From Christensenella sp. UBA5489 (GTDB lineage Bacteria > Bacillota > Clostridia > Christensenellales > UBA1242): DNA of 64,000 bases. The notes under the pieces are model-generated. The model was not told where the DNA came from, did not search any database, and worked only from the letters and a program-made list of their open reading frames with translations. A program made the translations under genes and the position numbers. Of the stretch, positions 6,353 through 24,948 are shown piece after piece (the first letter of the stretch is position 1; every line of letters starts with the position of its first letter). Location: assembly GCA_002424095.1 (NCBI GenBank), contig DIPL01000001.1, forward strand, positions 2,184 through 66,183, given 5' to 3'.

Positions 6353-6480
6353 TTAATTTTGTTGAAAAAAATTTTTATGCAAATTGTCTGAATTTTTAAA
6401 AAATCATACAAATATGTCATAAAAATGGCGAATTTTTTTAACCTTATGTTATTATAATTTTAAATTTTAATGTTACAAAT

Positions 6481-6527
6481 TTAATATTGTCATATTTTAT
6501 TGACAATATTATTTTCTATTATTATAA
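6481..6527 (+). promoter_or_regulatory. consensus promoter overlapped by an 11-bp perfect inverted repeat (candidate operator)
   Basis: TAATATTGTCA (6481-6491), an 8-nt spacer, then TGACAATATTA (6500-6510). The overlapping promoter is TTGACA (6499-6504), a 17-nt spacer, then TATAAT (6522-6527). Confidence 0.45.
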
Positions 6528-6657
6528 TATTAAAAAATAGAACAAACGTTCGACGGCTGGTAACGATTTTGCAAAAATATTATACAAAATATATACTATA
6601 TTTATCATAATTTTTGACACGAACGTTAAAAGATAAAAATTTCAGGAGGGAGTGAAT

Positions 6658-7206
6658 ATGTACACTCAAAATATGGTAAAGACTTTATTTACAGTTTATA
6701 GATTTTTAGAAAGATTAGCAAATTCAATAGATAGAATCATCAACACAAGGGCGGTAAATGCCTGCTTTGTACATTTGGAAAATACAGCTTATAATTATGT
6801 TGAAAAAGTTGCCGATGATATAATGGAACTCACACAAAGAAAGATAACTTTAATAAATTTAAAAGTCATTACTGATAATATATTAGAAAACATTAATCAG
6901 GATTTTGCAAGATTTGTTATAATGAAATACATAGAAGATAGGTCGATTTTTGAAATTTCAGATGCCCTTGAAGTGAGTATGCGTACGCTTTCAAGGTGGA
7001 ATAATAACGCTATAATCAAAGGTGCTTTGTATTTGCGAGGAAACGGCTTAACGTTAAATGTTATGGTTGATTTAATTAAAAACGAAAACTGGATAGTACA
7101 AGTATTTAATGAATTTAATAAAAAGACGAGAGAAAAATTATGCATTGATAAAAATATAAAGATAATTCAACGGGCTTGCAAAGAATATAATAAATTTTTA
7201 TGTTAA
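6658..7206 (+). CDS. phage late-gene regulator candidate (sigma-70 region-4-like HTH; DUF1492/ArpU-RinA-like architecture)
   Basis: C-terminal-half motif FARFVIMKYIEDRSIFEISDALEVSMRTLSRWNNNAI resembles a region-4 HTH. The gene is at the head of the packaging module. AGGAGG at 6644-6649 favours ATG 6658. Confidence 0.4.
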   Translation: MYTQNMVKTLFTVYRFLERLANSIDRIINTRAVNACFVHLENTAYNYVEKVADDIMELTQRKITLINLKVITDNILENINQDFARFVIMKYIEDRSIFEISDALEVSMRTLSRWNNNAIIKGALYLRGNGLTLNVMVDLIKNENWIVQVFNEFNKKTREKLCIDKNIKIIQRACKEYNKFLC

Positions 7207-7325
7207 GATATAAAAATAATTTTTAAATTTATAATATGCTAGTTTCAAAAATGCAAGAGCAGTCTAAGGAATTTATCAAACAAAAACAAGATAAGTTTTT
7301 AATTTAAAATCTCATAAAAATTTCA

Positions 7326-8189
7326 TCATTCATCAAATTCATAATATTCACTTCTTTTTAGACGGTTTAATTTCTTTTTTGGTTTTTTGCCATTATCAAT
7401 AATGAGTTTTGTTGGCTTGAAAAGTAAATAAATTATAAAAAGGCAGGGTAGGCAAGCACAAATAATAATAATGACTTTCAATTCATCACTTAAAACAATT
7501 TCGTTTGGACTTGTATTACTTAGCGGAAAAAGTTCACCAGAAAAAGCTGGTAATTCTTCGGCATTTTTTTCAACCGACACATTCGCTGGAAAGCAAAGTG
7601 GTTTATATAAATAGCCATAATATACTCCATCATTGCTGGTATATTTGCTATAATACCAAACATCCACGCCAAGTTGAGGCACTAGAATATCGCCCGTTTT
7701 TTCGCCATAATAAGTTAAATCTTCCTGCAAAAAAGGTACAGTAATATCAGAATCAGCAGATATTTTTGGAGACTTTTTTAATTCAAGTCCGCCAGTTGAA
7801 TAAATGCCAATTGTCAAATTATCTGCAAAAGGTTTGATAGGCGTTCCTTCAACTGCAAAAACTTGATTTTTTTTAACATAACCTAAAATATCCATATAAT
7901 ATGCTTTATAAAATAAATTGCCATCATCGTTTGCGTTGTCGGTTAGCAAAACAAAGTAACTTTGCGGAATGCAAAATATTTTGTATTCATCACTATTCAT
8001 AGGTTGAGAATAAAGAAAAACATTATCATTTTTTATTTTCGCATAGACGTTTTCATAAGCGAATAAATTTTTTGGTTGCAAAGAAATAAAAAGTGGAGAA
8101 ATCACAAACATAAAAGAAAATATAATGATAAAAATTTCCGCATATTTAAAAATTATAAAATTGCGTAAAAAAGCAGTGTTATATTTCAT
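7326..8189 (-). CDS. membrane protein with N- and C-terminal TM helices and an SH3-like extracytoplasmic region
   Basis: 287-aa ORF. N-terminal TM is FIIFKYAEIFIIIFSFMFVISPLFI, C-terminal TM is VIIIICACLPCLFIIYLLF, followed by a basic tail. NVYAKIKNDNVFLYSQP...GYVKKNQVF is reminiscent of bacterial SH3. Confidence 0.5.
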   Translation of the reverse strand: MKYNTAFLRNFIIFKYAEIFIIIFSFMFVISPLFISLQPKNLFAYENVYAKIKNDNVFLYSQPMNSDEYKIFCIPQSYFVLLTDNANDDGNLFYKAYYMDILGYVKKNQVFAVEGTPIKPFADNLTIGIYSTGGLELKKSPKISADSDITVPFLQEDLTYYGEKTGDILVPQLGVDVWYYSKYTSNDGVYYGYLYKPLCFPANVSVEKNAEELPAFSGELFPLSNTSPNEIVLSDELKVIIIICACLPCLFIIYLLFKPTKLIIDNGKKPKKKLNRLKRSEYYEFDE

Positions 8190-8233
8190 TAAATGAATAT
8201 TAACATATTTTAAAAAAGCGAAAATGGCTTTTT

Positions 8234-9712
8234 ATGATTTTTTTTAGCAAAAAAACAAAAATCTATAATAAATTGGAGAAATGTAAATTGCGAGAAGTTG
8301 TAAATCAAATTTTAAAAATTGAAAACATATTAAAAACAAGAAATCAAACAAATTCTAAACTTAAAAAGTATAACAAAGGTTCGTTGATTCATAAAAAGCA
8401 AATGCAGTTTCATAAATGCAAAAAACGTAATCGCTGGGTTTTCGGAGGCAATCGAAGTGGTAAAACTGAATGCGGTGCAGTTGAAACAGTTTGGCTTGCA
8501 CGTGGAATTCATCCATACAAAGAAAACAAGAAAAATATAAGCGGTTGGATTGTTTCGCTGTCGCATCAAGTTCAAAGAGATGTTGCACAAAACAAAATTT
8601 TAGAATATATAAATCCTTATTGGATTAAAGAAGTTGTAATGCGTGAAGGGCGGAAAAGCAGTGCGAAATATGGAATAATTGATTTTATTCTCATAAAAAA
8701 TGTTTTCGGCGGTGCAAGTAAACTTGCTTTTAAGTCGTGCGATCAAGGGCGAGAAAAATTTCAAGGAACAAGTCTTGATTTTGTTTGGTTTGATGAAGAG
8801 CCACCGCAAGATATTTATCGTGAATGTCAAATGCGTGTTATGGATAAAAAAGGTGAAATTTTCGGAACAATGACACCGCTTAAAGGGCTAACGTGGGTTT
8901 ATGATGAAATATACTTAAATCAATGTGCCGACAGCGAAGTTTGGTCAATTTTTATGGAATGGAACGATAATCCATTTTTAAATAAAGAAGAAATTACACA
9001 TTTAACGCAAACACTTTCAAGTGATGAATTGGAAAGCAGGCGCTACGGCCGTTTTATTCATAACGGCGGATTAGTCTATGGTGAATTTGACCCATCTATT
9101 CATATAATTGAGCCGTTTAATGTGCCGACTGAGTGGTATGATAATATTTCAATTGACCCGGGACTGAATAATCCTTTATCAGCACATTGGTATGCAGAAG
9201 ATTTTGATGGAAACATTTACGTAATTGCAGAACATTATGAAGCACGGCAAACAGTTCTATATCACGCAAGCAAAATCAAAGAAATATGCCAAACTTTGAA
9301 TTGGCCGTTGTTTCAAGGCAAAGTCCGTGCTTTAATTGACAGTGCATCAAATCAAAGAACGCTTGCGGGCGAAAAATCCGTGAGTGAACTTTTTAATGAC
9401 TGCGGAATTTTAGTAAGTACTTCGGTTAATAAAGATTTATTCAGCGGAATTAATAAAGTTAAATGGTTTTTAAAGGATGTAGAAAACAAAACTCGTCTTT
9501 TTATATTTAAATCTTGCGTAAATCTAATAAGAGAAATCAAAGGTTACAGTTGGGGCAATGGCGAAAAACCGATGAAAAAAAATGACCACGCACTTGATGA
9601 ATTGAGATATTATTTAATGTCAAAGAACAGTAGAACAGAAAAACCAAATAAAACCGAAATTCAAAAAAACAAAGAAAAATTAATTCGAAAAATAAAAAAT
9701 ACAAATTTTTGA
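8234..9712 (+). CDS. terL: phage terminase large subunit
   Basis: Walker A is FGGNRSGKTECG and Walker B is LDFVWFDEEP. Nuclease-domain acidic motifs are ISIDPGLNNP and NDHALDELRY. Full length at 492 aa. Confidence 0.9.
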   Translation: MIFFSKKTKIYNKLEKCKLREVVNQILKIENILKTRNQTNSKLKKYNKGSLIHKKQMQFHKCKKRNRWVFGGNRSGKTECGAVETVWLARGIHPYKENKKNISGWIVSLSHQVQRDVAQNKILEYINPYWIKEVVMREGRKSSAKYGIIDFILIKNVFGGASKLAFKSCDQGREKFQGTSLDFVWFDEEPPQDIYRECQMRVMDKKGEIFGTMTPLKGLTWVYDEIYLNQCADSEVWSIFMEWNDNPFLNKEEITHLTQTLSSDELESRRYGRFIHNGGLVYGEFDPSIHIIEPFNVPTEWYDNISIDPGLNNPLSAHWYAEDFDGNIYVIAEHYEARQTVLYHASKIKEICQTLNWPLFQGKVRALIDSASNQRTLAGEKSVSELFNDCGILVSTSVNKDLFSGINKVKWFLKDVENKTRLFIFKSCVNLIREIKGYSWGNGEKPMKKNDHALDELRYYLMSKNSRTEKPNKTEIQKNKEKLIRKIKNTNF

Positions 9713-9755
9713 ATTATCTGATTATTTTACTTCTTGAAGAATAATTGCTACATAA

Positions 9756-9784
9756 TTGACATAATTTCGAACTTATTGTATAAT
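9756..9784 (+). promoter_or_regulatory. perfect consensus sigma-70 promoter upstream of the paralogue triplet
   Basis: TTGACA (9756-9761), an exactly 17-nt spacer, then TATAAT (9779-9784). It begins 44 nt after the terL stop. Confidence 0.55.
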
Positions 9785-9869
9785 GAAAACATAAAAAATG
9801 TAGAGATTAAATCAAGAAAAACCGAACAAAAACATATAAAAAAATTTCTTATACATAAAGGAAAGAAAT

Positions 9870-11156
9870 ATGAAAAGAGTTGTTGTATCGCCAGAAAAGC
9901 CAGTGCAAAAAATCAAAAGACTACCAAAAGACTATCGAGAATTGAAATCTGATGAAAATCCATACATAGCAAAATTAATTTCTTATATACAAGAAAAATA
10001 TCCCTATAATTATGTTAGCGATAATCGTGGAAATATAAACGAAGCATTAACAAAACGTTTCATTGCCCATAATCTTTTAACAGACTTTGAAGATACTGGC
10101 GATATGATACAATTTGTAAAATTTTATGCTTCTTTTATTTTATCAAAACACGGAATCAATGAAATTGAATATTATCAAAAATCTGTTGGCTTGGAAGATT
10201 CTTATTCGACAAATAATTATATGAGAGAAAATAAAATACATTTGCCTTTATATAGATTTACAAGTTCTCGGGACATTAAACGTCTTTTAGCAACAATGAG
10301 ATACATTGAAGAAGATATAATTTATCAACAAAATTTCATCAACGGCACAGGTTTAAATAAAAAAATAACAAATCCATGTAGATTTCCAGATAGATTTCAA
10401 GTTGATTATGCAAATGAAAGAGTGCGAGATTTCTTTCAATTTTTGGAAAGATTTGTTTCTCGTCCAAAAACGGTTATAAATAACGAAACCAAAACTTATT
10501 CAATGGATTATATAAACAGTTATATGATACGAAAAAATGACATAAGTCAACAGTTGGCATTTGACTCTTCGGTTTCTGAAATGAATAACATTTATGAATA
10601 TTTGAAATATGTTCATAATAATGATTTTGTCAACCCAGCCGAAAAAGAAAAAGCAGATTCAAATTTTGAAATTATAAAAGATGAATTGTTTAAATATAAT
10701 CTAAATTCTAAACAGCAACACAAGCGTTGGAGAGAATCAAACCAGTCAAACAAGGAATTTGAAACAATGGATAATATGATAAAAGAAAAATATTATGAAT
10801 ATTGCGAAAGATGCCTTGTAGACGAATTTGAAATAATAAACGAAAGTGCACAGTGGGAACTTCTCTCGCAAGGAATGAAAATTGCTAGATATTATAATTC
10901 AGATTTGGCTCAAAGATTATATGAAAGATGTTTTGAACTTGGGGCATATAAAGCGTGTTTAACTCTTTTAGATGCACCTAAATTTCCGGCTACCGAAAAA
11001 CAATTAAACGAACTTATCACTGAATATATTGATGAACCTGATTTTGAGAAAAATTTATATGAATACTTAATTAATTTTGATAAAGATTTTTTACGTAAAT
11101 CTTATATAAAAAATCAGACTTTAAATCAAAACAAAGATGAAGAGTATGTTTTATAA
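9870..11156 (+). CDS. hypothetical protein, paralogue 1 of a tandem triplet (unrecognised family)
   Basis: 428 aa with no TM helix or signal peptide. Its C-terminal module (nt 10899-11105), SDLAQRLYERCFELGAYKACLTLLDAPKFPATEKQLNELI...NFDKDFLRKSY, is shared with the next two ORFs. Confidence 0.7.
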   Translation: MKRVVVSPEKPVQKIKRLPKDYRELKSDENPYIAKLISYIQEKYPYNYVSDNRGNINEALTKRFIAHNLLTDFEDTGDMIQFVKFYASFILSKHGINEIEYYQKSVGLEDSYSTNNYMRENKIHLPLYRFTSSRDIKRLLATMRYIEEDIIYQQNFINGTGLNKKITNPCRFPDRFQVDYANERVRDFFQFLERFVSRPKTVINNETKTYSMDYINSYMIRKNDISQQLAFDSSVSEMNNIYEYLKYVHNNDFVNPAEKEKADSNFEIIKDELFKYNLNSKQQHKRWRESNQSNKEFETMDNMIKEKYYEYCERCLVDEFEIINESAQWELLSQGMKIARYYNSDLAQRLYERCFELGAYKACLTLLDAPKFPATEKQLNELITEYIDEPDFEKNLYEYLINFDKDFLRKSYIKNQTLNQNKDEEYVL

Positions 11157-11215
11157 TAAATTAAAAATAAGGTAAGAAAACCAAAAAATTTACAAAAGAA
11201 AAATGGAGAAAAAAA

Positions 11216-12400
11216 ATGATAAATTTCAACAAAAATACAGAAGAAATTGACGAAAAAGAGATAATGAAATATCCAGTAAAACAGTTGCATTCTGCTATTT
11301 TATCAAAAGAAGAACTTTTGAAAAGTATGTTTAATGAAATTGCTGGCAAACTACTCGAATTTGAAACCTTGTCCGAGGAAGACCAATATAATTTAATTGA
11401 ATTATATATGTGCTATGCTGTAACTCGCGAAAATTTAACCGATGTAGTCCAAACGCCCGATATAAGTTTAAAAACAAATATTCGCAATGATATGTGGGTT
11501 CCGAATATTTATTTGTCATTAAAAAATAAAGATATTAAAGATTTAATGAAACGTTTATGGCATATTGAATATGAAATTGCACATATAAAAGAAACTCGTG
11601 CTTTAAATCCATATAAGACCGATAAAGTTGGAAACATTCAAGAAATTGATGCGAATACGGAAATTTCCGAAGAAGATACAACAGACTTTTTTTTGCATTG
11701 GAAAGATGGATTAACTTTTATTGATTTTTTTCATTTCCATTTTCCACACGAGAAAAGAGCAAGAGAAACTTGTTTAAAAAAAATAACGGAATTGCACGAT
11801 GAAATGGAAAGGATTCACGATGTTGAAAAAACAGGAAGAAATAATCCAAAATTGCAAAAAGAAGCACTTTTAATCAACGGGACGAAAAACGCAATTCAAT
11901 GGGTCAATGAATATTATAAGGCATACTATAACATAAAAAATACAAGATTTTTTCTTGAAAATTTAAGAAAAGAAGAAAAGCAGATAAGACAAAAATTTCA
12001 CGATATTATTGCACCCGAAAACACCGATGACTTAATATCAGTTAGAAAAAATGGAGATTTATCAAATCTAGCACAAGGTTTAAAACATCGAAATTTTTAC
12101 GATGTAAAAGTTGCCGATAAAATATATAACAATGCTTTAAAATGTGATGAATATAAAGCCTGTCTAACAATTCTAAATCTTTTAGATTATCCTGTCGATG
12201 AAAAACAAATAAAAGATTTGATTATGAAATATGATGACAATAAACATTTTTGCCAAGATTATTTCGAAATGATGACAAATTTTCATGATGAATATCTTGC
12301 AGGATTATACCTCGATGCTTGGCACGAAAAATTTAAAAGCCAAAATAGATGTTTTGAAAAGCCGACACGAGTAAAGGAAACACCCGAAATGTCGTCGTAA
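11216..12400 (+). CDS. hypothetical protein, paralogue 2 of the tandem triplet
   Basis: 394 aa. C-terminal module (nt 12104-12310) is VADKIYNNALKCDEYKACLTILNLLDYPVDEKQIKDLI...NFHDEYLAGLY. The N-terminal LIELYMCYAVTRENL matches ALIELYVAYRAKKL of paralogue 3. Confidence 0.7.
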   Translation: MINFNKNTEEIDEKEIMKYPVKQLHSAILSKEELLKSMFNEIAGKLLEFETLSEEDQYNLIELYMCYAVTRENLTDVVQTPDISLKTNIRNDMWVPNIYLSLKNKDIKDLMKRLWHIEYEIAHIKETRALNPYKTDKVGNIQEIDANTEISEEDTTDFFLHWKDGLTFIDFFHFHFPHEKRARETCLKKITELHDEMERIHDVEKTGRNNPKLQKEALLINGTKNAIQWVNEYYKAYYNIKNTRFFLENLRKEEKQIRQKFHDIIAPENTDDLISVRKNGDLSNLAQGLKHRNFYDVKVADKIYNNALKCDEYKACLTILNLLDYPVDEKQIKDLIMKYDDNKHFCQDYFEMMTNFHDEYLAGLYLDAWHEKFKSQNRCFEKPTRVKETPEMSS

Positions 12401-12463
12401 GATACCGACTCCAAAAATTGAGCAGTTGAATTAAATATAGTAAAAAAGGTACGTAGAATAATA

Positions 12464-13786
12464 ATGCAAATAAAAAAACTTCCATTAATCAAAAACGAAG
12501 ATGAAAATAAATTACTTAATCACCTTAACGAAGCGGCATTTGATATTGTTTTGAGAGCAGGTAGTGCTGACAAAATCGAAGATTTTTCTATTTCAAACGA
12601 AGAATTCGATTTTGAGCAGTGGCTAATGCTAAATCCTGACGATAAAAGCATGGAACAGATGAGCGCTTTGATTGAATTATATGTCGCTTATAGAGCAAAG
12701 AAACTTAGAATTAAAAATTTATCATACACGCAAGATGAAGAGTATTCAGGGCTAGATCCATTGCAAAAATCAAGAGTAATTTTTTTGCCAAATTTTCTTT
12801 TTTATCCACAGTCAATGAAAGATTTTTTATTAAACGCAGGGACAATCGAGCAACTGCTTATATACAAAAAATACGAAAGGAAAAAGTTAAGAAAATCGAG
12901 GGAAAAAGGAATAATTTACAATCAAAATTTTGATTATTTAAGTAAATATTTAACCTATAAATATAAAATGTTGCCTACTGATTCGCCTTATATGAAAGTC
13001 GACCAACACGAAAGCATAATTTCCGAATTTAACAGCGAACTGAGAGTGAAAGCCAATTATGCAATTGAAGATATGGTTTTAAATTTGCATAGAACTTTTC
13101 AAAATGCATTATTAAACAACCGTAACCAATATAGTAAAAATGAAATTAAAATACTAAAAGATGAGTTAGAATATGCGGAACTTATAAGCAAAGGTTTTAA
13201 TCTTTGCGAAGAACGTTTGCGGAAAGATTATTACAGCGATGAAGCAATTGAAAAATTAACAGATTTGCAATTACAAACAAAAAATGACTATTATAATTTA
13301 TGTACCAAGTGTTTAAATGGAAAACCAAGATTTCACGATGTCGAATGGATTATCCTAACAACTGGACTAGCACATCCTATGCTCTATGATGATGAATTGG
13401 CAGATGCCTTTTATGAAGCATGTTTCGAACGTAGGTTAGTGCAGGGCTGTTTTAATATTTTGAATTCACCTGAACATATACTTGACGCAGATGAATTGGC
13501 GGGAAATTTAGAGGAATTAATTTTAATAGGAAAAGACGACCCTTATTTTGAACAAGTCTATTATAATATGCTTGATAATTTTGATTTTGAATTCTTAAAA
13601 AGTTTTTATAATATTATATTGAAAGAAAACAAAAGAAATGTAACTTTTATGAATAAGGCAGGGCAAACCGTATACGCCGATAAATTAATAGGGAATAAAG
13701 AAAAGCAACTGAAATATTATTTCTTGGAAGACATAAGTCTTGAAAAATTACTCGGAGTTAAGTCATCATCCGAATTAGAAAGATGA
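12464..13786 (+). CDS. hypothetical protein, paralogue 3 of the tandem triplet
   Basis: 440 aa. C-terminal module (nt 13391-13609) is DELADAFYEACFERRLVQGCFNILNSPEHILDADELAGNLEELI...NFDFEFLKSFY. It also has KNDYYNLCTKCL, matching KEKYYEYCERCL in paralogue 1. Confidence 0.7.
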   Translation: MQIKKLPLIKNEDENKLLNHLNEAAFDIVLRAGSADKIEDFSISNEEFDFEQWLMLNPDDKSMEQMSALIELYVAYRAKKLRIKNLSYTQDEEYSGLDPLQKSRVIFLPNFLFYPQSMKDFLLNAGTIEQLLIYKKYERKKLRKSREKGIIYNQNFDYLSKYLTYKYKMLPTDSPYMKVDQHESIISEFNSELRVKANYAIEDMVLNLHRTFQNALLNNRNQYSKNEIKILKDELEYAELISKGFNLCEERLRKDYYSDEAIEKLTDLQLQTKNDYYNLCTKCLNGKPRFHDVEWIILTTGLAHPMLYDDELADAFYEACFERRLVQGCFNILNSPEHILDADELAGNLEELILIGKDDPYFEQVYYNMLDNFDFEFLKSFYNIILKENKRNVTFMNKAGQTVYADKLIGNKEKQLKYYFLEDISLEKLLGVKSSSELER

Positions 13787-13987
13787 TACTTTAAAACAAA
13801 TTATAGACTAATGATTTTTATTAAACATAAGTAAAAGGCTAAAAAAGCAAAACCAAAATTGATAAAACAAAAGAACATCTAAAAAGCATCACTTGCAGGC
13901 TATGATTTTTTGTTTCACATTTTTTATATTTTATAAAACAATCAATAAAAAAATATTGTAGAATTTTCATATTTTATATGTTTTTAT

Positions 13988-14015
13988 TTGTATTTTTGTT
14001 TAAATATGGTATAAT
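13988..14015 (+). promoter_or_regulatory. extended -10 promoter upstream of the GLUG surface-protein gene
   Basis: TGGTATAAT (14007-14015) with a weak -35 (TTGTAT) 16 nt upstream. Confidence 0.4.
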
Positions 14016-14093
14016 AAATTTAAAAATAGCAACAGAAAAATTTAAAAATTCAAATTCAATGGATTTTTGTTTTTAGCATTAAATGGAGATTTA

Positions 14094-16343: not shown

Positions 16344-16364
16344 TTTAGATATAGAACAATTAAT

Positions 16365-16389
16365 AAGTCGAAAATTTTCGACTTTTTTT
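16365..16389 (+). terminator. rho-independent terminator after the GLUG gene
   Basis: Palindrome AAGTCGAAAATTTTCGACTT followed by a T-run. Confidence 0.6.
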
Positions 16390-16935: not shown

Positions 16936-18927
16936 ATGAAAAATAGTGAAAATGAAAAACCAGAAGATTTAAAAAGTACGAATTCAGTAAAAGAAAAATC
17001 AAAAAAATTATACGAAACAAAAACCAAAGAAATGGCCAATTCTCTTGATGCGGCAGAAAAAGCGGAGTTATATGAAAAATTAATTGTTCAAGATGTTACA
17101 GAAGATTTTTTAAATAGACAAGAAGAACGTCGCAGAATAGAGGCACAATGGCAGTTAAATATGAAGTTCTTATCAGGAAATCAATATTGTTCAATCAATA
17201 ATAATGGAGAAATTCTTTCGTATAACCGCAGATTTTTTTGGCAACAGCAAGAATCTTATAATCATATTGCACCAATTATTGAACGTCGGCTTTCCAAACT
17301 TCAAAAAGTACGTCCAAAAATTAATGTTTATCCTGCATCTAACAACGACGCCGACATAAAAACCGCTAAACTTTCAAAGAAAATTCTAGAATCAATTTAT
17401 AACAAAATAGAATTAAGTTCAATCATAACAGAGGCAACAAAATGGAGCGAAATTTGCGGTACAAGTTTTTATAAAATTATTTGGGATTCATCAAAAGGTG
17501 AAAAAATTGCACAACTCGACAACGGAGAAGCAATTAAATCCGGCGACGTTGAAATTTTACCAATATCGCCCTTTGAAATCTATCCCGAAAACTCAATGGC
17601 GCAAGATATACAAAATTGTCGTAGCATAATTCACGCTCGTGCCTACCACGCAGATGAAATCAAAAATCAATGGGGTATTGATATTGAAGGAGATAAAATA
17701 AATATATTAACACTTGAAAATAATGTTGGCGAATTGTCTCAAGTAGGTGCTACAACTCAAAGCAATATGCGAAACAGCGGTGCAAACGGAATTGTTCGTG
17801 AAAATTATGTCGTTGTAATTGAAAAATATGAAGCACCGAGCGAAAAATTCCCTAACGGACGACTTATTATTGTGGCGAAAAATAAATTACTACACATTGG
17901 AGCATTACCTTTTATTAATGATATAGACGGTGCAAGAACTTTTCCGTTTATCAAGCAAGTTTCAATTCCACAAGTCGGATGTTTTTGGGGCAGTAGCATA
18001 ATTGAACGTCTAATTCCACTTCAACGTGCTTATAATGCAATAAAAAACCGCAAACACGAATTCCTCAACCGTCTTTCAATGGGAATTTTGACAGTCGAAG
18101 ACGGCTCAATTGATACCGAAAGTTTGGAAGAAGACGGACTTTGTCCGGGAAAAGTACTTGTTTATCGACAAGGTGCAAATGTACCTAAATATATGTCGAA
18201 CGACACAATTCCGTTTGATTTTACGAGCGAAGAAGAATCTCTCAAAAAAGAATTCGTAGAAATGAGCGGTGTTTCGGATTTTGCAAGCACACAATATACA
18301 AGTAAAAATTTAAGCGGTGCGGCGTTAGAACTCTTAATTGAACAAGATGAAAATAAAATTTTAGTAACGGTGGATAGCATAAAAAGTGCAATCAGAGAAA
18401 TTGCTAAACATATTTTACGACTTTATAAGCAATATGTAAAAATTCCAAAACTAACAAAAATTGTTGGAGATAATGGCGAACTTGAAATTTTTTACTTCAA
18501 CTCAGCAGATATTTCATCCGATGATATTGTTTTCGAAACAAAAGATGAAATAAGCGAAACATATTCTCAAAGGCGGAATATGGTTATGGAACTTTTAAGG
18601 TCAGGATTATTAAGTGATGAAAACGGCAAACTTTCAAACCGTATGAAATCAAAAGTTTTGGAACTTCTTGGCTTTGGAATTTGGGAAGGTGCGCTTGATA
18701 TAAACGAACTTCAAGCAGGTAGAGCATCCAAAGAAAATTATTCATTTCTTGAAAAGCAAGTGCCGAAAACATCTGAAATTGATGACCACGAAATTCATAT
18801 TTCAGAGCATACTGCATTTTTGTTGAGCGGAGAAGTGGAGAAAAACGAAAAATCTAAACAAGAGATAATGAAAAATATTTTAGAACATATCAAACAGCAC
18901 AAAACGCTATTGAATAAATTCAAATAA
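16936..18927 (+). CDS. phage portal protein
   Basis: 663 aa with an AAGGAG RBS. The N-terminal region EERRRIEAQWQLNMKFLSGNQY...YNHIAPIIERRLSKL is typical of portal/head-tail connector proteins. It sits before scaffold and capsid. Confidence 0.8.
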   Translation: MKNSENEKPEDLKSTNSVKEKSKKLYETKTKEMANSLDAAEKAELYEKLIVQDVTEDFLNRQEERRRIEAQWQLNMKFLSGNQYCSINNNGEILSYNRRFFWQQQESYNHIAPIIERRLSKLQKVRPKINVYPASNNDADIKTAKLSKKILESIYNKIELSSIITEATKWSEICGTSFYKIIWDSSKGEKIAQLDNGEAIKSGDVEILPISPFEIYPENSMAQDIQNCRSIIHARAYHADEIKNQWGIDIEGDKINILTLENNVGELSQVGATTQSNMRNSGANGIVRENYVVVIEKYEAPSEKFPNGRLIIVAKNKLLHIGALPFINDIDGARTFPFIKQVSIPQVGCFWGSSIIERLIPLQRAYNAIKNRKHEFLNRLSMGILTVEDGSIDTESLEEDGLCPGKVLVYRQGANVPKYMSNDTIPFDFTSEEESLKKEFVEMSGVSDFASTQYTSKNLSGAALELLIEQDENKILVTVDSIKSAIREIAKHILRLYKQYVKIPKLTKIVGDNGELEIFYFNSADISSDDIVFETKDEISETYSQRRNMVMELLRSGLLSDENGKLSNRMKSKVLELLGFGIWEGALDINELQAGRASKENYSFLEKQVPKTSEIDDHEIHISEHTAFLLSGEVEKNEKSKQEIMKNILEHIKQHKTLLNKFK

Positions 18928-18942: not shown

Positions 18943-20049
18943 ATGCAAAAAGAAAATAAGAAAAGGGAACAACCTGTAAAAAAATCCAACAAACCAGCAG
19001 TCAACTCCTTTGATAAATTAACTCGTGAATTAGCTCAAAAAATGAAACTGGAAAATATTAGTGCAAAATCGAACGAAAATAACAAAAAACTTAAAACTGA
19101 ACCAACTTTTGATTTTGGCGAAAACACAGTTAATGAAATCTTTGGCAAAGTTAATGAAGAAATCATTGATAAAATTTCAGAAAAAACAAATGATGACAAC
19201 GAAAATGCTGAAAAATCAATTATAACTTCTGAAAAATCTGCTGATGGAGAAACTGCTAAAACTGTTGAAGAAATGACAAATCAAACTGCTGACGAACAAA
19301 CAGAATCTAGTGGCAATTTTGACAACAGCAAAACGAATTGCAATTCTAATTGTTGCGAAAAAGATTGTAATGAAAATTTGGAAACAACTGAAAACTTCAC
19401 AGGCTCCCTTGGTAAATTCAAAGATGCTCAAAGTTTACTCATCGCCTATAACAACTTGCAGGCAGAGTTTACAAGAAAGTGTCAAAGACTAAAAGAATTT
19501 GAAAGAACATATGAACCAGAAAGTTGGCGAACGACAATAAAAAGTAATGAAAACTTGAACGACAAAAAACTTGATAATAAAATCGCATTGGAAAAATTAT
19601 TTTCACAAATTTCAACAACCGAAAATGAGCAAATAAATCCGCAAGAAATCAATGTTCAAAATCTAGCGGAAAAGCAATTGCAATCAGATTTTCAAACAAA
19701 ACAATTACAACCGGAAAACAAATCGCAGTTGCAAACAGAGAATTTTCAAGAAGAGATAAAATCACAGGCAAATCAATTGTCGGAAAATCAAACGAAAGAA
19801 CAAACGGAATCACAAAATACTAATATTGAAGATTTATTGAAAAATCCACAAGTTAAAGAATATATTTTAAACCGTGATGATATAAAAGAAAATGTTTTGA
19901 AAATATATTTTAAAGAACTTCGTGAAAGCAATCCACCGAAGGTGATTTCAAGTCTTATTGGCTCTGGAATTGCACTGAAAACTCCACTGAAACCAACAAA
20001 TATGGAAGAGGCAAAAGCAATCATAAATAAGATGTTTCATTTAAAATAA
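18943..20049 (+). CDS. putative capsid scaffolding protein
   Basis: Assigned by position between portal and capsid. It is a 368-aa, highly acidic, Gln/Glu/Asn-rich low-complexity protein. An odd Cys cluster CNSNCCEKDC lies near aa 133. Confidence 0.45.
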   Translation: MQKENKKREQPVKKSNKPAVNSFDKLTRELAQKMKLENISAKSNENNKKLKTEPTFDFGENTVNEIFGKVNEEIIDKISEKTNDDNENAEKSIITSEKSADGETAKTVEEMTNQTADEQTESSGNFDNSKTNCNSNCCEKDCNENLETTENFTGSLGKFKDAQSLLIAYNNLQAEFTRKCQRLKEFERTYEPESWRTTIKSNENLNDKKLDNKIALEKLFSQISTTENEQINPQEINVQNLAEKQLQSDFQTKQLQPENKSQLQTENFQEEIKSQANQLSENQTKEQTESQNTNIEDLLKNPQVKEYILNRDDIKENVLKIYFKELRESNPPKVISSLIGSGIALKTPLKPTNMEEAKAIINKMFHLK

Positions 20050-20091: not shown

Positions 20092-21309
20092 ATGGCAGTA
20101 ACAATAACAAGCGCAGAAGCAGCGCTAAAAAGTGTATATCTTGGAGTTGTTGCAAATCAACTCAACATAAACTCAAATCCTTTACTTGCAAAAATTCGTC
20201 AATCATCGGCAAATATTTGGGGCAAGGAAATCATCAAACTTGCACCTTATGGCATTAATGGCGGCATAGGTGCAGGTAGCGAGGAAGGCAGTCTTCCGAC
20301 AGCAGGTGGAAATAAATATGTGCAGTTTAAAGCTGGATTAAAAAATTTATATGGGAAAATTGAAATTTCAGATAAAGCAATTCGTGCATCAGAAAATAAT
20401 GTTGGTGCATTCGTAAATCTTCTAAACGATGAAATGGAAGGGCTTATCAAAGCAAGCAGTTTTAATCTCGGACGTATGCTCTACGGCGATGGCTCGGGGC
20501 TTTTGGCAACCACTTCAAAAGCGGTTTCCTTAGGAGATACTTTTTTCACAGTTGCAGACGCACGGAACATAATTGAAGGAATGATTTTGGACGTGTATAA
20601 CGGTGATACAAAAAATGCGACATTCAGTGGCTATCGTGTTACCTATGTCGAAAGAGGAGCAAATGAAAGCAAAATTTATATTGATTGTCCGTCAGACCTT
20701 GGAACTTTAACCACCGCTGCAAAACTTTATGTGCAAGGCTCACGCAATTTTGAAATAACAGGCTTAGAAGCAATTTTTGGTAGTGCTGATTTATATGGGT
20801 TAAGTCGTACAACATATCCGTGGCTTAATCCGTATAAAGATAACACAGATAAAGAAATTTCCGACATTGTTCTTCAAGATGCAATTGATGCCTTGGAAGA
20901 TAAGGCGGGTAGTGAAATTGACTTTATAACGTGTGCAAGGGATGTTCGCAAGGCATATCAGCAATATCTATCATATTACAAAAGAAATGTCGATATTATG
21001 GAACTTGCGGGCGGTTATAAAGCGATAACCTTTAATGGTATACCGCTTGTCGCCGACCGATTTGTTGAAAGTGGAACATTATATATGTTAAATACAAAAG
21101 ATTTTGTATTGCATCAACTTTGCGACTGGAATTGGCTTGAAAACGAAGATGGCAGAGTTTTAAGACAAACCACTGGTTATCCGACATATAGTGCAACTTT
21201 GGTAAAATATGCAGATTTAATTTGCGACCGTCCAATTGCTCAGTCAAAAATTTCAGGAATTTCAAGCACGGTTACAAATCCGTTTGAAATTCCAACTGGA
21301 ACAGAATAA
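20092..21309 (+). CDS. phage major capsid protein (HK97-fold inferred)
   Basis: 405 aa with a strong AGGAGGG RBS, located after the scaffold gene. SDKAIRASENNVGAFVNLLNDEMEGLIKASSFNLGRMLYGDGSG is typical of major capsid families. Confidence 0.75.
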   Translation: MAVTITSAEAALKSVYLGVVANQLNINSNPLLAKIRQSSANIWGKEIIKLAPYGINGGIGAGSEEGSLPTAGGNKYVQFKAGLKNLYGKIEISDKAIRASENNVGAFVNLLNDEMEGLIKASSFNLGRMLYGDGSGLLATTSKAVSLGDTFFTVADARNIIEGMILDVYNGDTKNATFSGYRVTYVERGANESKIYIDCPSDLGTLTTAAKLYVQGSRNFEITGLEAIFGSADLYGLSRTTYPWLNPYKDNTDKEISDIVLQDAIDALEDKAGSEIDFITCARDVRKAYQQYLSYYKRNVDIMELAGGYKAITFNGIPLVADRFVESGTLYMLNTKDFVLHQLCDWNWLENEDGRVLRQTTGYPTYSATLVKYADLICDRPIAQSKISGISSTVTNPFEIPTGTE

Positions 21310-21345: not shown

Positions 21346-21654
21346 ATGTTGGTTGAAGTTACAACAGATGTATATTTTATTGCCGAACGCTTATGTGAAA
21401 TTGATAAAAATTATTTTACAGTCTATAACACCGCCACTCAAAAATTTGAAATTCACAATAGAGAGCAACAAGGGAATACTTATTGTTTAAGTGTTCCCTT
21501 TGAAACTCTTGATTGTCGCACTTTGGAACTGGTGCAGAAAACGAAAATAGAAAATATCAATAAAATAATTGAAGAGATTGACAAGTCTAATATAATAGCA
21601 CAACAAAAATTGCAGAGAGAAACATTAAAAAAAGCACAGAAAATTTTAAATTAA
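21346..21654 (+). CDS. hypothetical phage protein
   Basis: 102-aa ORF in the structural operon. No family recognised. Confidence 0.4.
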   Translation: MLVEVTTDVYFIAERLCEIDKNYFTVYNTATQKFEIHNREQQGNTYCLSVPFETLDCRTLELVQKTKIENINKIIEEIDKSNIIAQQKLQRETLKKAQKILN

Positions 21655-21717: not shown

Positions 21718-22290
21718 ATGAAAGTCAAAGATATAATTGAAATTGCACTTGTACTTGTTGGGAAGAATTCTCTTTTGGACACATCAATGTTTAATCCACA
21801 AATTATAGAACCGCTGACCAATGAGCAAGAAAAAGAACTAGGCTATTTAGAAAAGTGTTTTAATTTAGTTTATAAGGAAGTGAGTGCAGATTATTTACCG
21901 CTTATGTATGAAGAAACAATTACATTTAAAAACGGCGAGTTTGTTTTGGACCAACTTGATAAAAGCATTCTAGACATTTATAAACTTTATGATAATTCGT
22001 ATGGAGATATTTCTTACCGCCTTTTTCCAACTTATATAAAAGCCGATGCCACAGTCGCTAATATAATTTACAGTTTTTTGCCTGAAAATCTAGAACTTGA
22101 TGATGAAGTAATATTTTTTGGCGGAAAACTTTTGCCACAAGTTTTAGCATACGGAATTGCACGTGAATATTGTCTTATTAATGGCGAACTTACAGAAGCA
22201 GATATTTGGGAAAAACGTTTTAAAGATGGAATTCAAACTGAAATGCGAAAAAAAAGTCAAATACAAATCAAGCCACGGAGGTGGTATTAA
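21718..22290 (+). CDS. putative head-tail connector/adaptor protein
   Basis: 190-aa protein positioned after the capsid gene. The call rests on position and general similarity to gp6-like head completion proteins only. Confidence 0.35.
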   Translation: MKVKDIIEIALVLVGKNSLLDTSMFNPQIIEPLTNEQEKELGYLEKCFNLVYKEVSADYLPLMYEETITFKNGEFVLDQLDKSILDIYKLYDNSYGDISYRLFPTYIKADATVANIIYSFLPENLELDDEVIFFGGKLLPQVLAYGIAREYCLINGELTEADIWEKRFKDGIQTEMRKKSQIQIKPRRWY

Positions 22291-23780
22291 TGTCGTTGAT
22301 GTTTTATAAAAACAAATTAAAAATAAAAAAGCCAAATTCAAAAATAATTAATTTTGACAATTTTGCGGAGAATATAAATTCAGATTTATGTAGCGAAAAT
22401 CTCAAAGAAGCAGGAAAAATAAGTTATAACTATCAAAATACAAGCGGAACGCTTGAATCCGAAATAGGATTCACTGAACTTGCTTTGCCAATTTCGGATG
22501 GTTCGCTTGAAACACGTATAATTCGAAATTTCAATGATACCGACGTAAAAAAACTTTGGCATTTTAAATATTTTGACCACGTTTATAACTGTGTTGCTGA
22601 TAAAATTATTTTTTGCAGTGCGGATGGGAGATTAAGTGTTTTAAGCGTTTTTGACTATGATAAAAATTCTTACATACTCGATATTGAAGCATTCGGAAAC
22701 TTGCCAGTTGGCATAAATTATTGCATTGAAGGCGAGGACTTTATGATCTTTTCAGGCGGCAGTTCTCTTGTGGCTTACACTTCACGCCGATTGCCAATTT
22801 ATAACGAAAATTGTCCGCCGCTTTTATCAATTTGCAAGGCATACGATAACATTTTTGCAATTTTAGCAGGCGATAGAAATAAACTTTTATATACGCCAAA
22901 TACGAATCCACTTGCATTGAGCGATATAAATGAAAAAATGGATTTAACTGGCGAAGCAGGGCGGCTTTGTTCACTTATTAATTTTGATGATTATTTATTT
23001 ATTTTTCGAGAATTTGGAATTACAAAACTTTCAAAGTACGGCTCAGCAGATAATTTCAGTATAAGCGAAATATATCAGTCATCCGCTAGAATTTATGAAA
23101 ATACGATTTCTGTTTGCGGAAATGAAATTATATTTTTAGCACAAGATGGAATTTATAAATTTAGCGGAACGAACACCGAAAAAATTAAATTAAATATTGA
23201 TAAATTTTTCGACGGTATTGCAAACAATGATTCATCCGCTTGTTATAGTAAAGGAAAATATATTTTGGCGTGTAGGCTGAATTTTGGCGATGAAAGAGAA
23301 GTTGGTTGTGAAACATATGCAGATGGATTTAAAAATAATGCGATTATAATTTTAGATTTAAACTCAAAAAAATTCAGCATTATGCGTGGACTTGATATTT
23401 CAAGTTTGCTTAGTTTAAATGCTGGTTCGTTAAGCACCATCTTAGCAACTTTTAATGGCGAACATTCTAAAAAAATTGGAATTATAGACACTTCTGCATC
23501 AATTTTTGACACAGAATTAAACTGTTTGTGGCAAAGCGGAAAATTTGATTTTGGAGAATTTGAAAAACTTAAAATTATAAAAAAGATTTTTATAAAGACA
23601 AAAGAGAATTGCAAAATAATCTTGAAATCAGATATTGAAGAAAAAATTTTTACAATCAATGCTGGACCATCAACGCAGTGCATTAACACAAAATTAAAAG
23701 GAAAAGTTTTCGAAGTTAGCATATCATCAGACGGAAAAACGCATATATCAAACTTCAAACTTAAAGCCGATATTGAATAA
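22290..23780 (+). CDS. putative neck/tail structural protein (repetitive beta-rich)
   Basis: TAATG overlap with the upstream gene. GGAGG at 22277-22281 favours ATG 22290. Recurrent FxxDGxxY-type segments (FCSADGRLSVLSVFDY, FLAQDGIYKFSG) suggest a beta-propeller-like fold. Confidence 0.35.
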   Translation: MSLMFYKNKLKIKKPNSKIINFDNFAENINSDLCSENLKEAGKISYNYQNTSGTLESEIGFTELALPISDGSLETRIIRNFNDTDVKKLWHFKYFDHVYNCVADKIIFCSADGRLSVLSVFDYDKNSYILDIEAFGNLPVGINYCIEGEDFMIFSGGSSLVAYTSRRLPIYNENCPPLLSICKAYDNIFAILAGDRNKLLYTPNTNPLALSDINEKMDLTGEAGRLCSLINFDDYLFIFREFGITKLSKYGSADNFSISEIYQSSARIYENTISVCGNEIIFLAQDGIYKFSGTNTEKIKLNIDKFFDGIANNDSSACYSKGKYILACRLNFGDEREVGCETYADGFKNNAIIILDLNSKKFSIMRGLDISSLLSLNAGSLSTILATFNGEHSKKIGIIDTSASIFDTELNCLWQSGKFDFGEFEKLKIIKKIFIKTKENCKIILKSDIEEKIFTINAGPSTQCINTKLKGKVFEVSISSDGKTHISNFKLKADIE

Positions 23781-23793
23781 AGGCAGGATAGCA

Positions 23794-23997
23794 ATGAAAA
23801 GTAGTTTAAAGCAAAATAAGATGAACGAACATAATTCGTCAAATAAATTAATTGAAAACTCTCAGGAAAAACAGAATAAAAGAGAAAATCAAAAACAACA
23901 AAATAGTTTTAAATTTTCGCATAAAGTAATAAGAGGAAAAATACTCTATTTATTAAGACGAGATTATATCAAAAGATATAAAAAATTGAATATTTAG
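23794..23997 (+). CDS. small, very basic Lys/Gln/Asn-rich ORF (uncertain)
   Basis: 67 aa from ATG 23794, with a low-complexity composition. It may not be a real gene. Confidence 0.2.
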   Translation: MKSSLKQNKMNEHNSSNKLIENSQEKQNKRENQKQQNSFKFSHKVIRGKILYLLRRDYIKRYKKLNI

Positions 23998-24082
23998 AAA
24001 AATATTTTAGATATATAAGATATAAACATATAAAAATATTATATTATAAAGAACTTTTTTAATATAAAATTTATAAAATATA

Positions 24083-24484
24083 ATGAAACACAAAAGGTTG
24101 AAAATGCAAGAATTAATTAATGTAGTAATAAGTAACGGAATTTTTGCAACTTTATTTGTTGCGTTGCTTTATTTTCAATTAAAAGACAGTTCTCAACGTG
24201 AGAAAAAATATATTGCAGTGATTGAAAAATTTTCAAAGCAACTCGATGCCGTTGAAGATGTTAAGGAAAATATTTCCAAACACTTTGATTCTGTCGATAA
24301 CGTGAGTTATGACATTTCTAAACAATCTGAGGCAATTGAAAATGTTAAGCAAGACATATCTGAAATAAAAAATGTAATTTATTTTAATAACACAATTGTT
24401 TCAAAGGGGAAAAAAGATAACAAAAAGCAAAGTAACATTATTAAAGAAAATAATTCCGAAGCAAAAGTCGAAAATGAAAATTAA
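24083..24484 (+). CDS. BhlA/UviB-family holin-like protein
   Basis: N-terminal single TM and adjacent motif VISNGIFATLFVALLYFQLKDSSQREKKYIAVIEKFSKQL matches my recollection of the BhlA/UviB family (GPFAVLFCWLLFYVMKTSKERESKL). The true start may be ATG 24104. Confidence 0.6.
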   Translation: MKHKRLKMQELINVVISNGIFATLFVALLYFQLKDSSQREKKYIAVIEKFSKQLDAVEDVKENISKHFDSVDNVSYDISKQSEAIENVKQDISEIKNVIYFNNTIVSKGKKDNKKQSNIIKENNSEAKVENEN

Positions 24485-24507
24485 TTTTCAGAAGTAAAAA
24501 GGAAAAG

Positions 24508-24810
24508 ATGAAATTTAAAGATAGAGTAAAATCATATAAATTTTGGGTTGCGCTTTCCGCCTCGCTCATAATTTTATTACAAACTTTGGGAGAGGCATTT
24601 GGCTTCACGATATCTGAAAAGGTGATTGATGGAATTGTTATGGGATTTTGCAGTATTCTTGTGGTTCTAGGAATTGTCGAGCATCCAGCCGACAAGAATA
24701 ATGACGACAAAGAAAATATTGAAAACGACAAAAAATCTGAAAATGAAAGTAAACCCGAAACCAAATCCGAAAATAAACCCGAACCCAAATCCGAAAGCAA
24801 ACCAAAATAG
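24508..24810 (+). CDS. phiLC3-family phage holin
   Basis: MKFKDRVKSYKFWVALSASLIILLQTLGEAFGFTISEKVIDGIVMGFCSILVVLGIVEHP has two TM helices and the typical N-terminal KNKxFW motif pattern. The tail is a charged repeat. Confidence 0.65.
   Translation: MKFKDRVKSYKFWVALSASLIILLQTLGEAFGFTISEKVIDGIVMGFCSILVVLGIVEHPADKNNDDKENIENDKKSENESKPETKSENKPEPKSESKPK
24751..24807 (+). repeat. 24-bp tandem repeat (about 2.3 copies) encoding KPE(T/P)KSE(N/S)
   Basis: AAACCCGAAACCAAATCCGAAAAT (24751-24774) and AAACCCGAACCCAAATCCGAAAGC (24775-24798) are 22/24 identical. A partial third copy follows. Confidence 0.8.
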
Positions 24811-24828
24811 AAAAATAAAAAAATATTT

Positions 24829-24878
24829 AAACTCATTAATTTTAGGAGAAATTCTTAAATTTAATGAGTTTTTATTTT
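24829..24878 (+). terminator. rho-independent terminator closing the island
   Basis: AAACTCATTAA (24829-24839) pairs with TTAATGAGTTT (24861-24871) and is followed by a T-run. Confidence 0.55.
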
Positions 24879-24948
24879 TAAACTTTACAATCTTAAAAAA
24901 AATGTTATAATTACAATTAATACAGTAAATTTTTTTAGAAGGATTATA

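Follow-up and report, generated by a model that had tools for sequence, protein, structure and literature searches.

For a long time gene transfer agents (GTAs) were known almost solely from Alphaproteobacteria; the first report of a podovirus-like GTA from a gut Firmicute dates from January 2026. That system, FpGTA of Faecalibacterium prausnitzii, is the closest known to the locus described here, which lies in a 64,000-nucleotide stretch of DNA (hereafter the window) from Christensenella sp. UBA5489 (GenBank assembly GCA_002424095.1, contig DIPL01000001.1, positions 2,184 to 66,183 of the forward strand). A block of 18.6 kb in this window, at positions 6353-24948, carries phage-type packaging, head, tail and lysis genes, and on balance it is probably a vertically inherited, SOS-induced, podovirus-derived particle-and-lysis module of GTA-like character, fixed in a large clade of uncultured gut Clostridia with low guanine-plus-cytosine (GC) content.

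FpGTA is encoded by a 10.5-kb operon and forms particles of ~40 nm without visible tails, which hold ~8.5 kb of random host DNA (PMC12946183). Its operon I runs from the large terminase (TerL) through the portal, a small protein, the capsid protein, two small proteins, a nozzle (PDB 8eap) and one further gene to a coiled-coil protein; the small terminase (TerS) lacks a DNA-binding domain, and the coiled-coil ('TolA-like') protein is abundant in the virion (PMC12946183). For Christensenellaceae (HGM11616, QANA01) the same study described fragments of ~4 kb and ~6 kb packaged in a GTA-like manner, for which the responsible locus was not found (PMC12946183). The features of the Christensenella block that enter into a comparison with these systems are listed below, with coordinates in the window.

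6500-6528, plus strand: sigma-70 promoter upstream of the regulator gene, perfect TTGACA-17-TATAAT (12/12 in the promoter scan)
6540-6551, no strand: predicted LexA (Cheo/SOS) box GAACAAACGTTC, 11 nt downstream of the -10 hexamer
6568-6591, no strand: two degenerate copies of a TTTTGTACAAAA-type palindrome, read from the sequence, between the LexA box and the regulator gene
6652-7206, plus strand: late-gene activator candidate, ArpU / sigma-70 region-4-like (phrog_36 at 8e-8; phrog_248 at 6e-6)
8234-9712, plus strand: large terminase TerL (Terminase_6N and Terminase_6C; phrog_2 at 9e-30)
16509-16829, plus strand: truncated TerS-like protein, ~100 aa (phrog_309 and phrog_23444 family matches)
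16936-18927, plus strand: portal, P22 type (P22_portal at 8e-22; phrog_156 at 7.5e-41)
18943-20049, plus strand: scaffold candidate, 368 aa (position, and a family conserved between portal and capsid protein in 73 loci)
20092-21309, plus strand: major capsid protein, podovirus type (NCBIfam NF033394 capsid_maj_Podo, 261 bits; phrog_14242 at 2e-57)
21346-21654, plus strand: conserved 102-aa protein (family at the same position in 59 loci; no database match)
21718-22290, plus strand: predicted head-to-tail adaptor, 190 aa (AlphaFold2 model, predicted local distance difference test score (pLDDT) 90, and Foldseek)
22281-23780, plus strand: predicted tail nozzle/hub, 499 aa (AlphaFold2 model, pLDDT 88.7, and Foldseek)
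23773-23997, plus strand: 74-aa open reading frame (ORF) of doubtful reality (no homologue in any locus)
24083-24484, plus strand: BhlA-family holin-like protein (Holin_BhlA at 1.4e-14; phrog_2429, phrog_1296)
24508-24810, plus strand: holin of the Phage_holin_1 family (Pfam at 3.6e-5; phrog_297 at 7e-11)

As a sequence-only reading of the window had stated, the block lies between ogg (5495-6352; OGG_N plus HhH-GPD) and pdp (24949-26421; Glycos_transf_3). The chromosome region around it is low in GC (~30%) and otherwise housekeeping. Most gene calls of that reading hold: a late-regulator-like protein, an apparently intact TerL with Walker A and Walker B motifs, a 663-aa portal, a 405-aa capsid protein and two holins were all recovered by family searches. 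The TerS-like protein is likewise real, in truncated form. The proposed scaffold keeps its place as a candidate through its position and family conservation, having no direct family match in Pfam, PHROGs or NCBIfam. Scans of all ORFs against Pfam, PHROGs, NCBIfam and PADLOC gave no match to an integrase, repressor, replication gene, tape measure, fibre or peptidoglycan hydrolase, in agreement with the earlier inventory, and its statements on host-like base composition (the GC content of the block is like that of its flanks) and on consensus promoters (two perfect sigma-70 sites, 6500-6528 and 9756-9784) also proved correct. Its description of the island as head-only was wrong: two of the supposed hypothetical ORFs are, on their structural models, an adaptor and a tail nozzle, the kind of finding that it had itself named as telling against it. 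The inventory also left undescribed ~7.3 kb of non-phage content, consisting of a divergent SH3b membrane protein, three paralogues and a GLUG surface protein.

The window cluster and FpGTA are alike in being chromosomal operons of gut Clostridia that lack phage-autonomy genes and are near-ubiquitous within their host clades. The order from TerL to nozzle in FpGTA is that of the Christensenellales-type cluster, the nozzles belong to the same top-ranked structure class (8eap), the DUF7934 coiled-coil gene of the window's relatives stands at the position of the FpGTA coiled-coil gene, and TerS is without a recognisable DNA-binding domain in both. This likeness is one of architecture, the FpGTA order having been taken from the RCH50852-RCH50844 numbering and annotations. 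The two differ in host order, and the last two FpGTA genes are without a counterpart in the window. Moreover, FpGTA places its fibre, receptor-binding protein, holin and endolysin (as well as a baseplate) in a second operon 125 kb away, whereas the window cluster has holins, regulator, LexA box and SH3b protein in cis and no second operon within the 64 kb. The two clusters may represent independent domestications.

The RcGTA-type agents of Alphaproteobacteria, which are viriforms, resemble the window cluster as vertically inherited, phage-derived head-packaging-tail clusters under purifying selection, with a TerS devoid of DNA-binding specificity, splittable loci, host regulators and release by lysis (PMC9662315). 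They differ in being siphovirus-like, with a tape measure and a long tail, and unrelated in sequence, whereas the morphology genes of the window cluster are podoviral; their control centres on CtrA and quorum sensing, while a LexA box is the visible control element here. With the tails of podoviruses (P22 gp1/gp4/gp10, Pa223, VP1 and N4-like phages) the cluster shares the folds of adaptor and nozzle as well as a gene order in which portal and then capsid protein come ahead of adaptor and nozzle. Genuine podoviruses have further parts (a needle or plug, tailspikes or fibres, ejection proteins, an endolysin), and the window has no recognisable gene for any of them. PBSX of Bacillus subtilis is a chromosomally fixed, SOS-inducible element with the sigma-like late factor Xpf that packages host DNA and encodes a BhlA/XhlA-type protein and a holin; it is myovirus-like, has a contractile tail and its own amidase, and kills rather than transfers. 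The Gram-positive host, the fixed chromosomal place, the SOS control (predicted for the window cluster), the sigma-like late activator, the packaging of host DNA (proposed for the window cluster) and the BhlA/XhlA-type lysis partners are points of likeness, whereas contractile-tail genes (sheath, tube, tape measure, baseplate) and an amidase were not detected in the window, where the tail parts are podoviral.

The strongest part of the case concerns inheritance. A scan of one genome per species returned 91 stretches with portal relatives, 80 of which were kept, so that relatives of 42-70% portal identity are present in at least 80 species-level genomes, at one copy per genome. Nearly all carriers are metagenome-assembled genomes from the guts of humans and animals, and bear the label Clostridia, Christensenellales or Christensenella. 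Gene order, established by tblastn and ORF clustering, is conserved among these loci (numbered with the prefix L): regulator, SH3b protein on the minus strand, terL, terS, in many loci a 72-aa Cys-rich protein, and portal, followed by scaffold, capsid protein, the 102-aa protein, adaptor and nozzle, and then by a variable gene of ~380 aa, the DUF7934 coiled-coil gene, the BhlA-like protein and the holin. One subclade instead has recognisable tail and tail-fibre genes after the nozzle (phrog_5302, phrog_4176). The flanks are housekeeping genes common within clades, ogg and pdp in the window's clade and, in a second one, gyrA/parC-like, polysaccharide deacetylase, SSB-like and large surface protein genes on one side and membrane protein and RNase J genes on the other (SSB labelled by Pfam; gyrA/parC-like, deacetylase and RNase J by sequence inspection).

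In seven loci (L009, L041, L046, L048, L049, L052 and L053) the cluster is split, such that a terS-to-holin block bounded by housekeeping genes is without the regulator/SH3b/terL trio within 10 kb. In L009 (1-9930) the block comes immediately after rplF-rpsE-secY-adk-map-rpsD-rpoA-rplQ-rnhA, and terL is missing for at least 10 kb around; in L046 it sits between an ABC transporter and comEC-holA. No phage could work in such an arrangement. As to placement, the cluster is co-oriented with the ribosomal-protein operon in two unrelated slots, 12 kb upstream of it in the window (where the operon, at ~36.9-53.7 kb, was read from the ORF pattern alone) and directly downstream of it in L009, and in another clade its neighbour is a gyrA/parC-like gene; the cluster may favour regions that are origin-proximal and highly expressed.

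Protein distances of the element track those of adjacent host proteins across 15 species (Mantel r=0.905, p=1e-4), and portal distances track those of the deacetylase (Spearman 0.88), the co-divergence extending over roughly 40-60% protein divergence. In close species pairs the ratio of nonsynonymous to synonymous substitution rates (dN/dS) is 0.02-0.33 for every core gene, and the host neighbours behave alike. The block can therefore be regarded with high confidence as a vertically maintained host cluster, and the earlier suggestion of a maintained, domesticated element, as opposed to a decaying prophage, is strongly supported by the spread over at least 80 species, the conserved slots, the co-divergence, the purifying selection and the LexA operator predicted below. 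As judged from sequence, the cluster thus combines features by which GTAs are recognised, namely structural and packaging genes without autonomy functions, vertical inheritance under purifying selection, and an apparent host regulatory control.

The packaging and head genes are those of a podovirus-type particle. The TerL translation displays Walker A (GGNRSGKT) and Walker B (FVWFDEE), its type is headful (T4-like) by Pfam scan, and terL dN/dS is 0.02-0.05. Of the 41 members of the TerS-like family, 35 match phrog_309 and 16 match phrog_23444. In the window the match covers only positions ~196-244 of the 319 in the phrog_309 profile; such matches are confined to the C-terminal third of TerS profiles, and 35 of the 41 members are alike in this respect; by this alignment the protein is without the N-terminal part that normally binds DNA and gives pac recognition. 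The scaffold candidate has 368 aa in the window against ~216 aa in most relatives, the excess being a low-complexity insert rich in E, N, T and Q. The nearest phage relatives of the capsid protein come from actinobacterial phages, at identities of no more than 29%; Arthrobacter phage Jasmine (46.7 kb), the sole near phage inspected, has podovirus-type gene content. The capsid protein family is large (>5,900 clusters at 90% identity among the candidates scored), and three lineages carry two major-capsid-protein genes in tandem (L020 12771-15129, L031 12612-14972 and L058 8035-10376). Profile searches of the TerS-like and capsid protein families against the PDB returned nothing useful. The 102-aa protein is a candidate for a head completion or connector protein.

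Downstream of the head genes, profile searches against the PDB likewise gave nothing useful for the nozzle, adaptor and DUF7934 families, and the adaptor and nozzle were resolved only by structure prediction and Foldseek, with AlphaFold2 models built on alignments of database homologues. The adaptor model matches adaptors or connectors of phages P1, KHP30, DEV, SU10, Pa223 (TM-score 0.62) and N4 (TM-score 0.60) as well as T7 gp11, which identifies the 190-aa ORF, at the level of its modelled fold, as a podovirus head-to-tail adaptor. The nozzle model matches the Pa223 tail protein 9nwi_Y (E 4e-22, TM-score 0.73), VP1 8zkk_O, P22 gp10 8eap_D (E 9e-14) and T7 gp12, and the 499-aa ORF is accordingly modelled as a P22 gp10-like beta-propeller tail nozzle, whose true start is probably 22290 or 22299. 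Because both models match such proteins, the particle would have the portal-adaptor-nozzle core of a short podovirus tail. The nozzle family is large as well, its profile matching 510 representative clusters at E<=1e-30 on contigs of up to 582 kb; ten distant members that were sampled are named no finer than 'Clostridia' or 'Clostridiales bacterium'. One family representative, P0188, is 925 aa long with the nozzle at residues 1-496, which suggests a fusion in some lineage of the nozzle to a downstream, perhaps fibre-like, protein.

It is after the nozzle that the window copy departs from most of its relatives. The doubtful 74-aa ORF occupies the slot of the variable ~380-aa gene and the DUF7934 gene, and no homologue of either, or of the relatives' tail and fibre genes, exists anywhere in the 64-kb window; the nearest relatives, L002 and L003, lack them as well. 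The two lysis genes follow, and a 12-nt tandem repeat at the 3' end of the holin gene (24745-24792) codes for a repeated tail rich in (K/S)(P/E)E.

The control region of the cluster yields its most specific prediction. The regulator gene, present at this position in 44 loci, encodes a protein with additional weak NCBIfam matches to SigW/extracytoplasmic function (ECF) sigma factors and to phage_arpU. Its promoter precedes GAACAAACGTTC, the sole GAAC-N4-GTTC in the window, which conforms to the GAAC-N4-GTTC-type LexA operator consensus of Bacillus and clostridia (PMC4234289). Orthologous loci have the same -35/-10 arrangement ahead of the box, and in most of them the box adjoins the -10 hexamer, as in ...TATAATA GAACAAATGTTC GATAA. 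The LexA box gains weight because of its position and conservation, not its occurrence in a single window: related loci totalling 1.36 Mb contain 32 strict sites, and 22 of these are located in the 300 nt that precede the regulator gene, the background being 0.007 per 300 nt. A strict site is found in 19 of 43 loci and in three more with a divergent gene in the regulator's position, and the figure is 31 of 43 when one outer mismatch (the clostridial GTTT variant) is allowed. We infer that the cluster's activator would belong to the host SOS regulon.

A second element lies between the LexA box and the regulator gene. Where the window has its two degenerate palindromes, relatives such as L003 (2860-2960), L016, L021 and L043 usually have the palindrome TTTTGTACAAAA in two perfect 12-bp copies; the copies are spaced by about two helical turns, and a second promoter, TTGACA...TATACT, follows closely. 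Across all loci, 49 of the 99 matches to this motif fall upstream of the regulator gene; the region ahead of terL does not contain it. The activator might act on its own gene through these copies. For terL, a k-mer search of the upstream regions for a common late-promoter motif yielded nothing but the start region of the adjacent gene in reverse complement. Upstream of terS, T[TG]TGGCAGT followed ~6 nt later by TTTGAAAG occurs in 13 of 68 loci, a modest enrichment (p~8e-5), and in L009, L010, L040, L041, L046, L048, L049, L052, L055 and L077, which carry it, terS heads its own transcription unit. The pair could be an activator-dependent late promoter, but its spacing does not fit sigma-54, and no claim is made for it here.

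These parts suggest a scheme of action. The host LexA repressor would bind the Cheo box, seen in the sequence abutting the strong sigma-70 promoter of the regulator gene; upon DNA damage LexA would be cleaved and removed, the ArpU/sigma-like regulator would be made, and this in turn would switch on the late genes. TerL and the truncated TerS, both encoded in the block, would then fill capsids made of the portal, scaffold and podovirus-type capsid protein, and the adaptor and P22 gp10-like nozzle would close them. As the element is without excision or replication functions, the host chromosome in situ would be the only substrate available. That the particles might hold essentially random host DNA, in pieces too short for the whole cluster, is hinted at indirectly by the truncated TerS and by the 4-6 kb packaging published for Christensenellaceae. 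The BhlA-like protein and the holin would permeabilise the membrane and lyse the producer. As no locus encodes a wall hydrolase, this enzyme would have to be supplied by the host or from another site. The window lineage has gained a cargo cassette, described below, and has lost the DUF7934 gene and the variable or fibre-like post-nozzle genes; with these gone, its particles would be unable to deliver DNA unless genes at other sites in the genome provide the parts for adsorption.

That the cluster makes DNA-filled particles and lyses cells after SOS induction seems likely; that it transfers genes is a nearly even question, leaning slightly towards no. A fuller version of the proposal is offered more tentatively still: an order-wide podovirus-type GTA, domesticated independently of FpGTA in the Christensenellales-type gut Clostridia and wired to the SOS response through LexA, would be the source of the 4-6 kb packaging seen for Christensenellaceae in human faecal virus-like particles (VLPs), and its lineage-variable post-nozzle genes would set the range of recipients.

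Several points weigh against a GTA-like interpretation. Particle formation, DNA content and DNA delivery are all predictions from the genes, and the LexA box is a predicted operator by its match to the consensus, of which 0.54 strict sites would be expected by chance in a 64-kb window. The host markers used for co-divergence are the element's neighbours, not an independent or genome-wide species tree. A small capsid, with a capacity below the size of its own cluster, is a GTA hallmark that the sequence does not imply, because the capsid protein's nearest phage relatives include the ~47-kb podovirus-type genome of Jasmine. As to kinship with FpGTA at the sequence level, the FpGTA capsid protein is labelled N4-gp56 family and that of the window capsid_maj_Podo, and hhalign detected no similarity between the window family and N4 gp56, taken as a proxy for the FpGTA protein. 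Finally, no needle or plug, spike or fibre gene was recognised in the 64-kb window, so that this copy could be functionally incomplete, and no endolysin was found in any locus.

The conservation, selection and LexA wiring would fit equally well a domesticated particle that does not serve gene transfer, whether for SOS-triggered altruistic lysis and DNA release or as a PBSX-like killer or decoy that packages DNA incidentally and delivers none. The retention of holins in the cluster and the lack of any adsorption protein in the window lineage speak for such a particle, and the authors of the FpGTA study leave open a PBSX-like, non-transferring role for their own system (PMC12946183). However, TerL, the TerS-like protein and the portal are among the most constrained genes (dN/dS 0.02-0.15), therefore DNA packaging itself appears to be selected, and most relatives keep variable post-nozzle genes, in some cases tail or fibre genes (phrog_5302, phrog_4176), which suggests that adsorption matters. 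We consider a non-transferring particle unlikely, though worth keeping in view.

An element that can neither excise nor replicate, with a headful (T4-like) TerL, might also act as an in situ engine of the lateral-transduction type, for which packaging would begin at a pac-like site, either within the cluster or close to it, and run unidirectionally into the host genes alongside instead of sampling the chromosome randomly. The co-orientation of the cluster with the ribosomal-protein operon 12 kb downstream, and its direct contact with that operon in L009, would suit such an engine. Against it, the TerS-like protein is without the part that normally confers pac recognition, and the packaging reported for Christensenellaceae shows even coverage and short fragments (PMC12946183), which leaves directional packaging improbable.

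The GTA-like module, as the best fit among the three candidates of the sequence-only reading, is to be set against the other two, a capsid-forming satellite and a podovirus-like element with unrecognised tail proteins. In capsid-forming phage-inducible chromosomal islands (cf-PICIs), which build their own heads and borrow tails from a helper phage, a small island likewise carries terminase, portal, capsid and connector genes and no fibres, and the size of the block and its want of an endolysin would suit such a satellite. However, cf-PICIs carry an integrase, AlpA and replication modules (a primase-replicase) and move between att sites, whereas the window element has none of these genes, shows only AT-rich chance matches in a search for att-like direct repeats around the block, is fixed in its slot at one copy per genome, co-diverges with its host, encodes its own adaptor and nozzle and exists in split form in some lineages; a satellite is accordingly very improbable. 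The podovirus-like candidate was right in that tail proteins were hidden among the hypotheticals and wrong if meant as a self-sufficient phage. A small temperate podovirus prophage, intact, recently inactivated or decaying, would account for full-length core ORFs in a phage-typical late-gene layout with an ArpU-like activator and holins, yet it scarcely survives the lack of lysogeny, integration and replication genes in the window and in ~60 loci with their flanks, the missing endolysin, the absence of fibres or spikes from the window (though some relatives have tail or fibre genes), the splitting by housekeeping genes, the purifying selection and synteny across many species that rule out decay, the failure to find a nucleotide match among 50,697 phage records, and the recovery from the 2.9 million contigs of IMG/VR of only 14 relatives, all of them the same host-embedded cluster. 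Flanks, split loci, co-divergence, selection and the absence of any trace of mobility or of a free phage together mark the block as a resident cluster, not a prophage.

The remaining content of the block is of a different kind and comprises the following features.

7326-8189, minus strand: SH3b membrane protein, 287 aa (N-terminal signal/transmembrane segment, two SH3b cell-wall-binding domains, C-terminal transmembrane segment)
9756-9784, plus strand: sigma-70 promoter of the cargo cassette, perfect consensus (12/12 in the promoter scan)
9870-13786, plus strand: three tandem paralogues, 428/394/440 aa (BLASTP, 31-33% identity over C-terminal parts)
14067-16343, plus strand: GLUG surface protein, 758 aa (Pfam Glug; signal peptide; C-terminal transmembrane anchor)
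16365-16384, no strand: bidirectional intrinsic-terminator-like hairpin closing the cargo cassette (terminator scan)

The SH3b gene belongs to the conserved cluster, occurring in 47 loci and in every case between the regulator and terL. Its family profile matches the SH3 region of the autolytic lysozyme 4krt (1.4e-5) and other SH3b structures, and Pfam SH3_3 was detected in an orthologue. By contrast with this wide distribution, the three paralogues, whose common conserved region is the C-terminal ~100-160 aa, are restricted to the window, genome locus L002 and an L002-like IMG/VR contig, L082; they have no Pfam, PHROG or PADLOC match. A GLUG gene between terL and terS is found only in the window's wider clade. 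The GLUG protein was entertained as a fibre or receptor-binding protein and rejected, in view of its signal peptide, its C-terminal membrane anchor and its place in a separately promoted and terminated cassette. Given its own sigma-70 promoter and bidirectional terminator, the cargo cassette (9756-16384) is an independently transcribed insertion between terL and terS. PADLOC assigned no defence function to the three paralogues, the GLUG protein, the SH3b protein or the small ORFs. With its cargo cassette and no post-nozzle genes the window copy is atypical; its particles may fail to adsorb, or may rely for this on other parts of the genome.

An insertion of another sort is seen in two of the IMG/VR contigs. 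In L086, directly after the capsid gene (6700-14200), lie what appear by inspection to be type I restriction-modification (HsdM/S/R-like), YpsA/SLOG-like and helix-turn-helix proteins, and ORFs of like sizes occupy the same position in L084 (13100-19900). L086 and L042 are 99-100% identical in terL, terS, portal, scaffold and capsid protein, by virtue of which the L086 block looks like a recent defence-island insertion.

Beyond the block, the window holds tsaE/tsaB-like genes and genes for a GNAT acetyltransferase, a Mur ligase, an aminoacyl-tRNA synthetase, Ppx and Cas3; it contains no tRNA genes or Rfam matches. The Cas3 gene (HD nuclease plus helicase) lies at 61166-62863, close to the window end, past which a type I CRISPR-Cas locus probably continues. 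At 30988-34618 two minus-strand genes stand amid a plus-strand region, with locally higher GC (0.35-0.37) and reversed GC skew; they encode a 451-aa SPFH/Band-7 protein and a 704-aa protein without Pfam or PADLOC match.

What is new here is a possibly independently domesticated member of the recently described podovirus-like kind of GTA, together with a specific prediction of SOS control. The cluster offers a testable candidate locus for the GTA-like packaging of Christensenellaceae, in a large clade of mostly uncultured gut Clostridia, and the analysis supplies a part list, a predicted inducer (DNA damage acting via LexA), a predicted regulator, and markers (portal, capsid protein and nozzle) with which long-read data from VLPs can be searched. 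Pipelines that predict prophages and viruses have labelled this host cluster viral, as the 14 contigs from IMG/VR show, and its description makes calls of this sort recognisable. If the proposal is true, a second major gut lineage would possess GTA-type mobilisation of host DNA as an ancestral trait under selection, and antibiotics or inflammation, where they set off the SOS response, would have the direct effect of increasing gene flow or lysis among its members.

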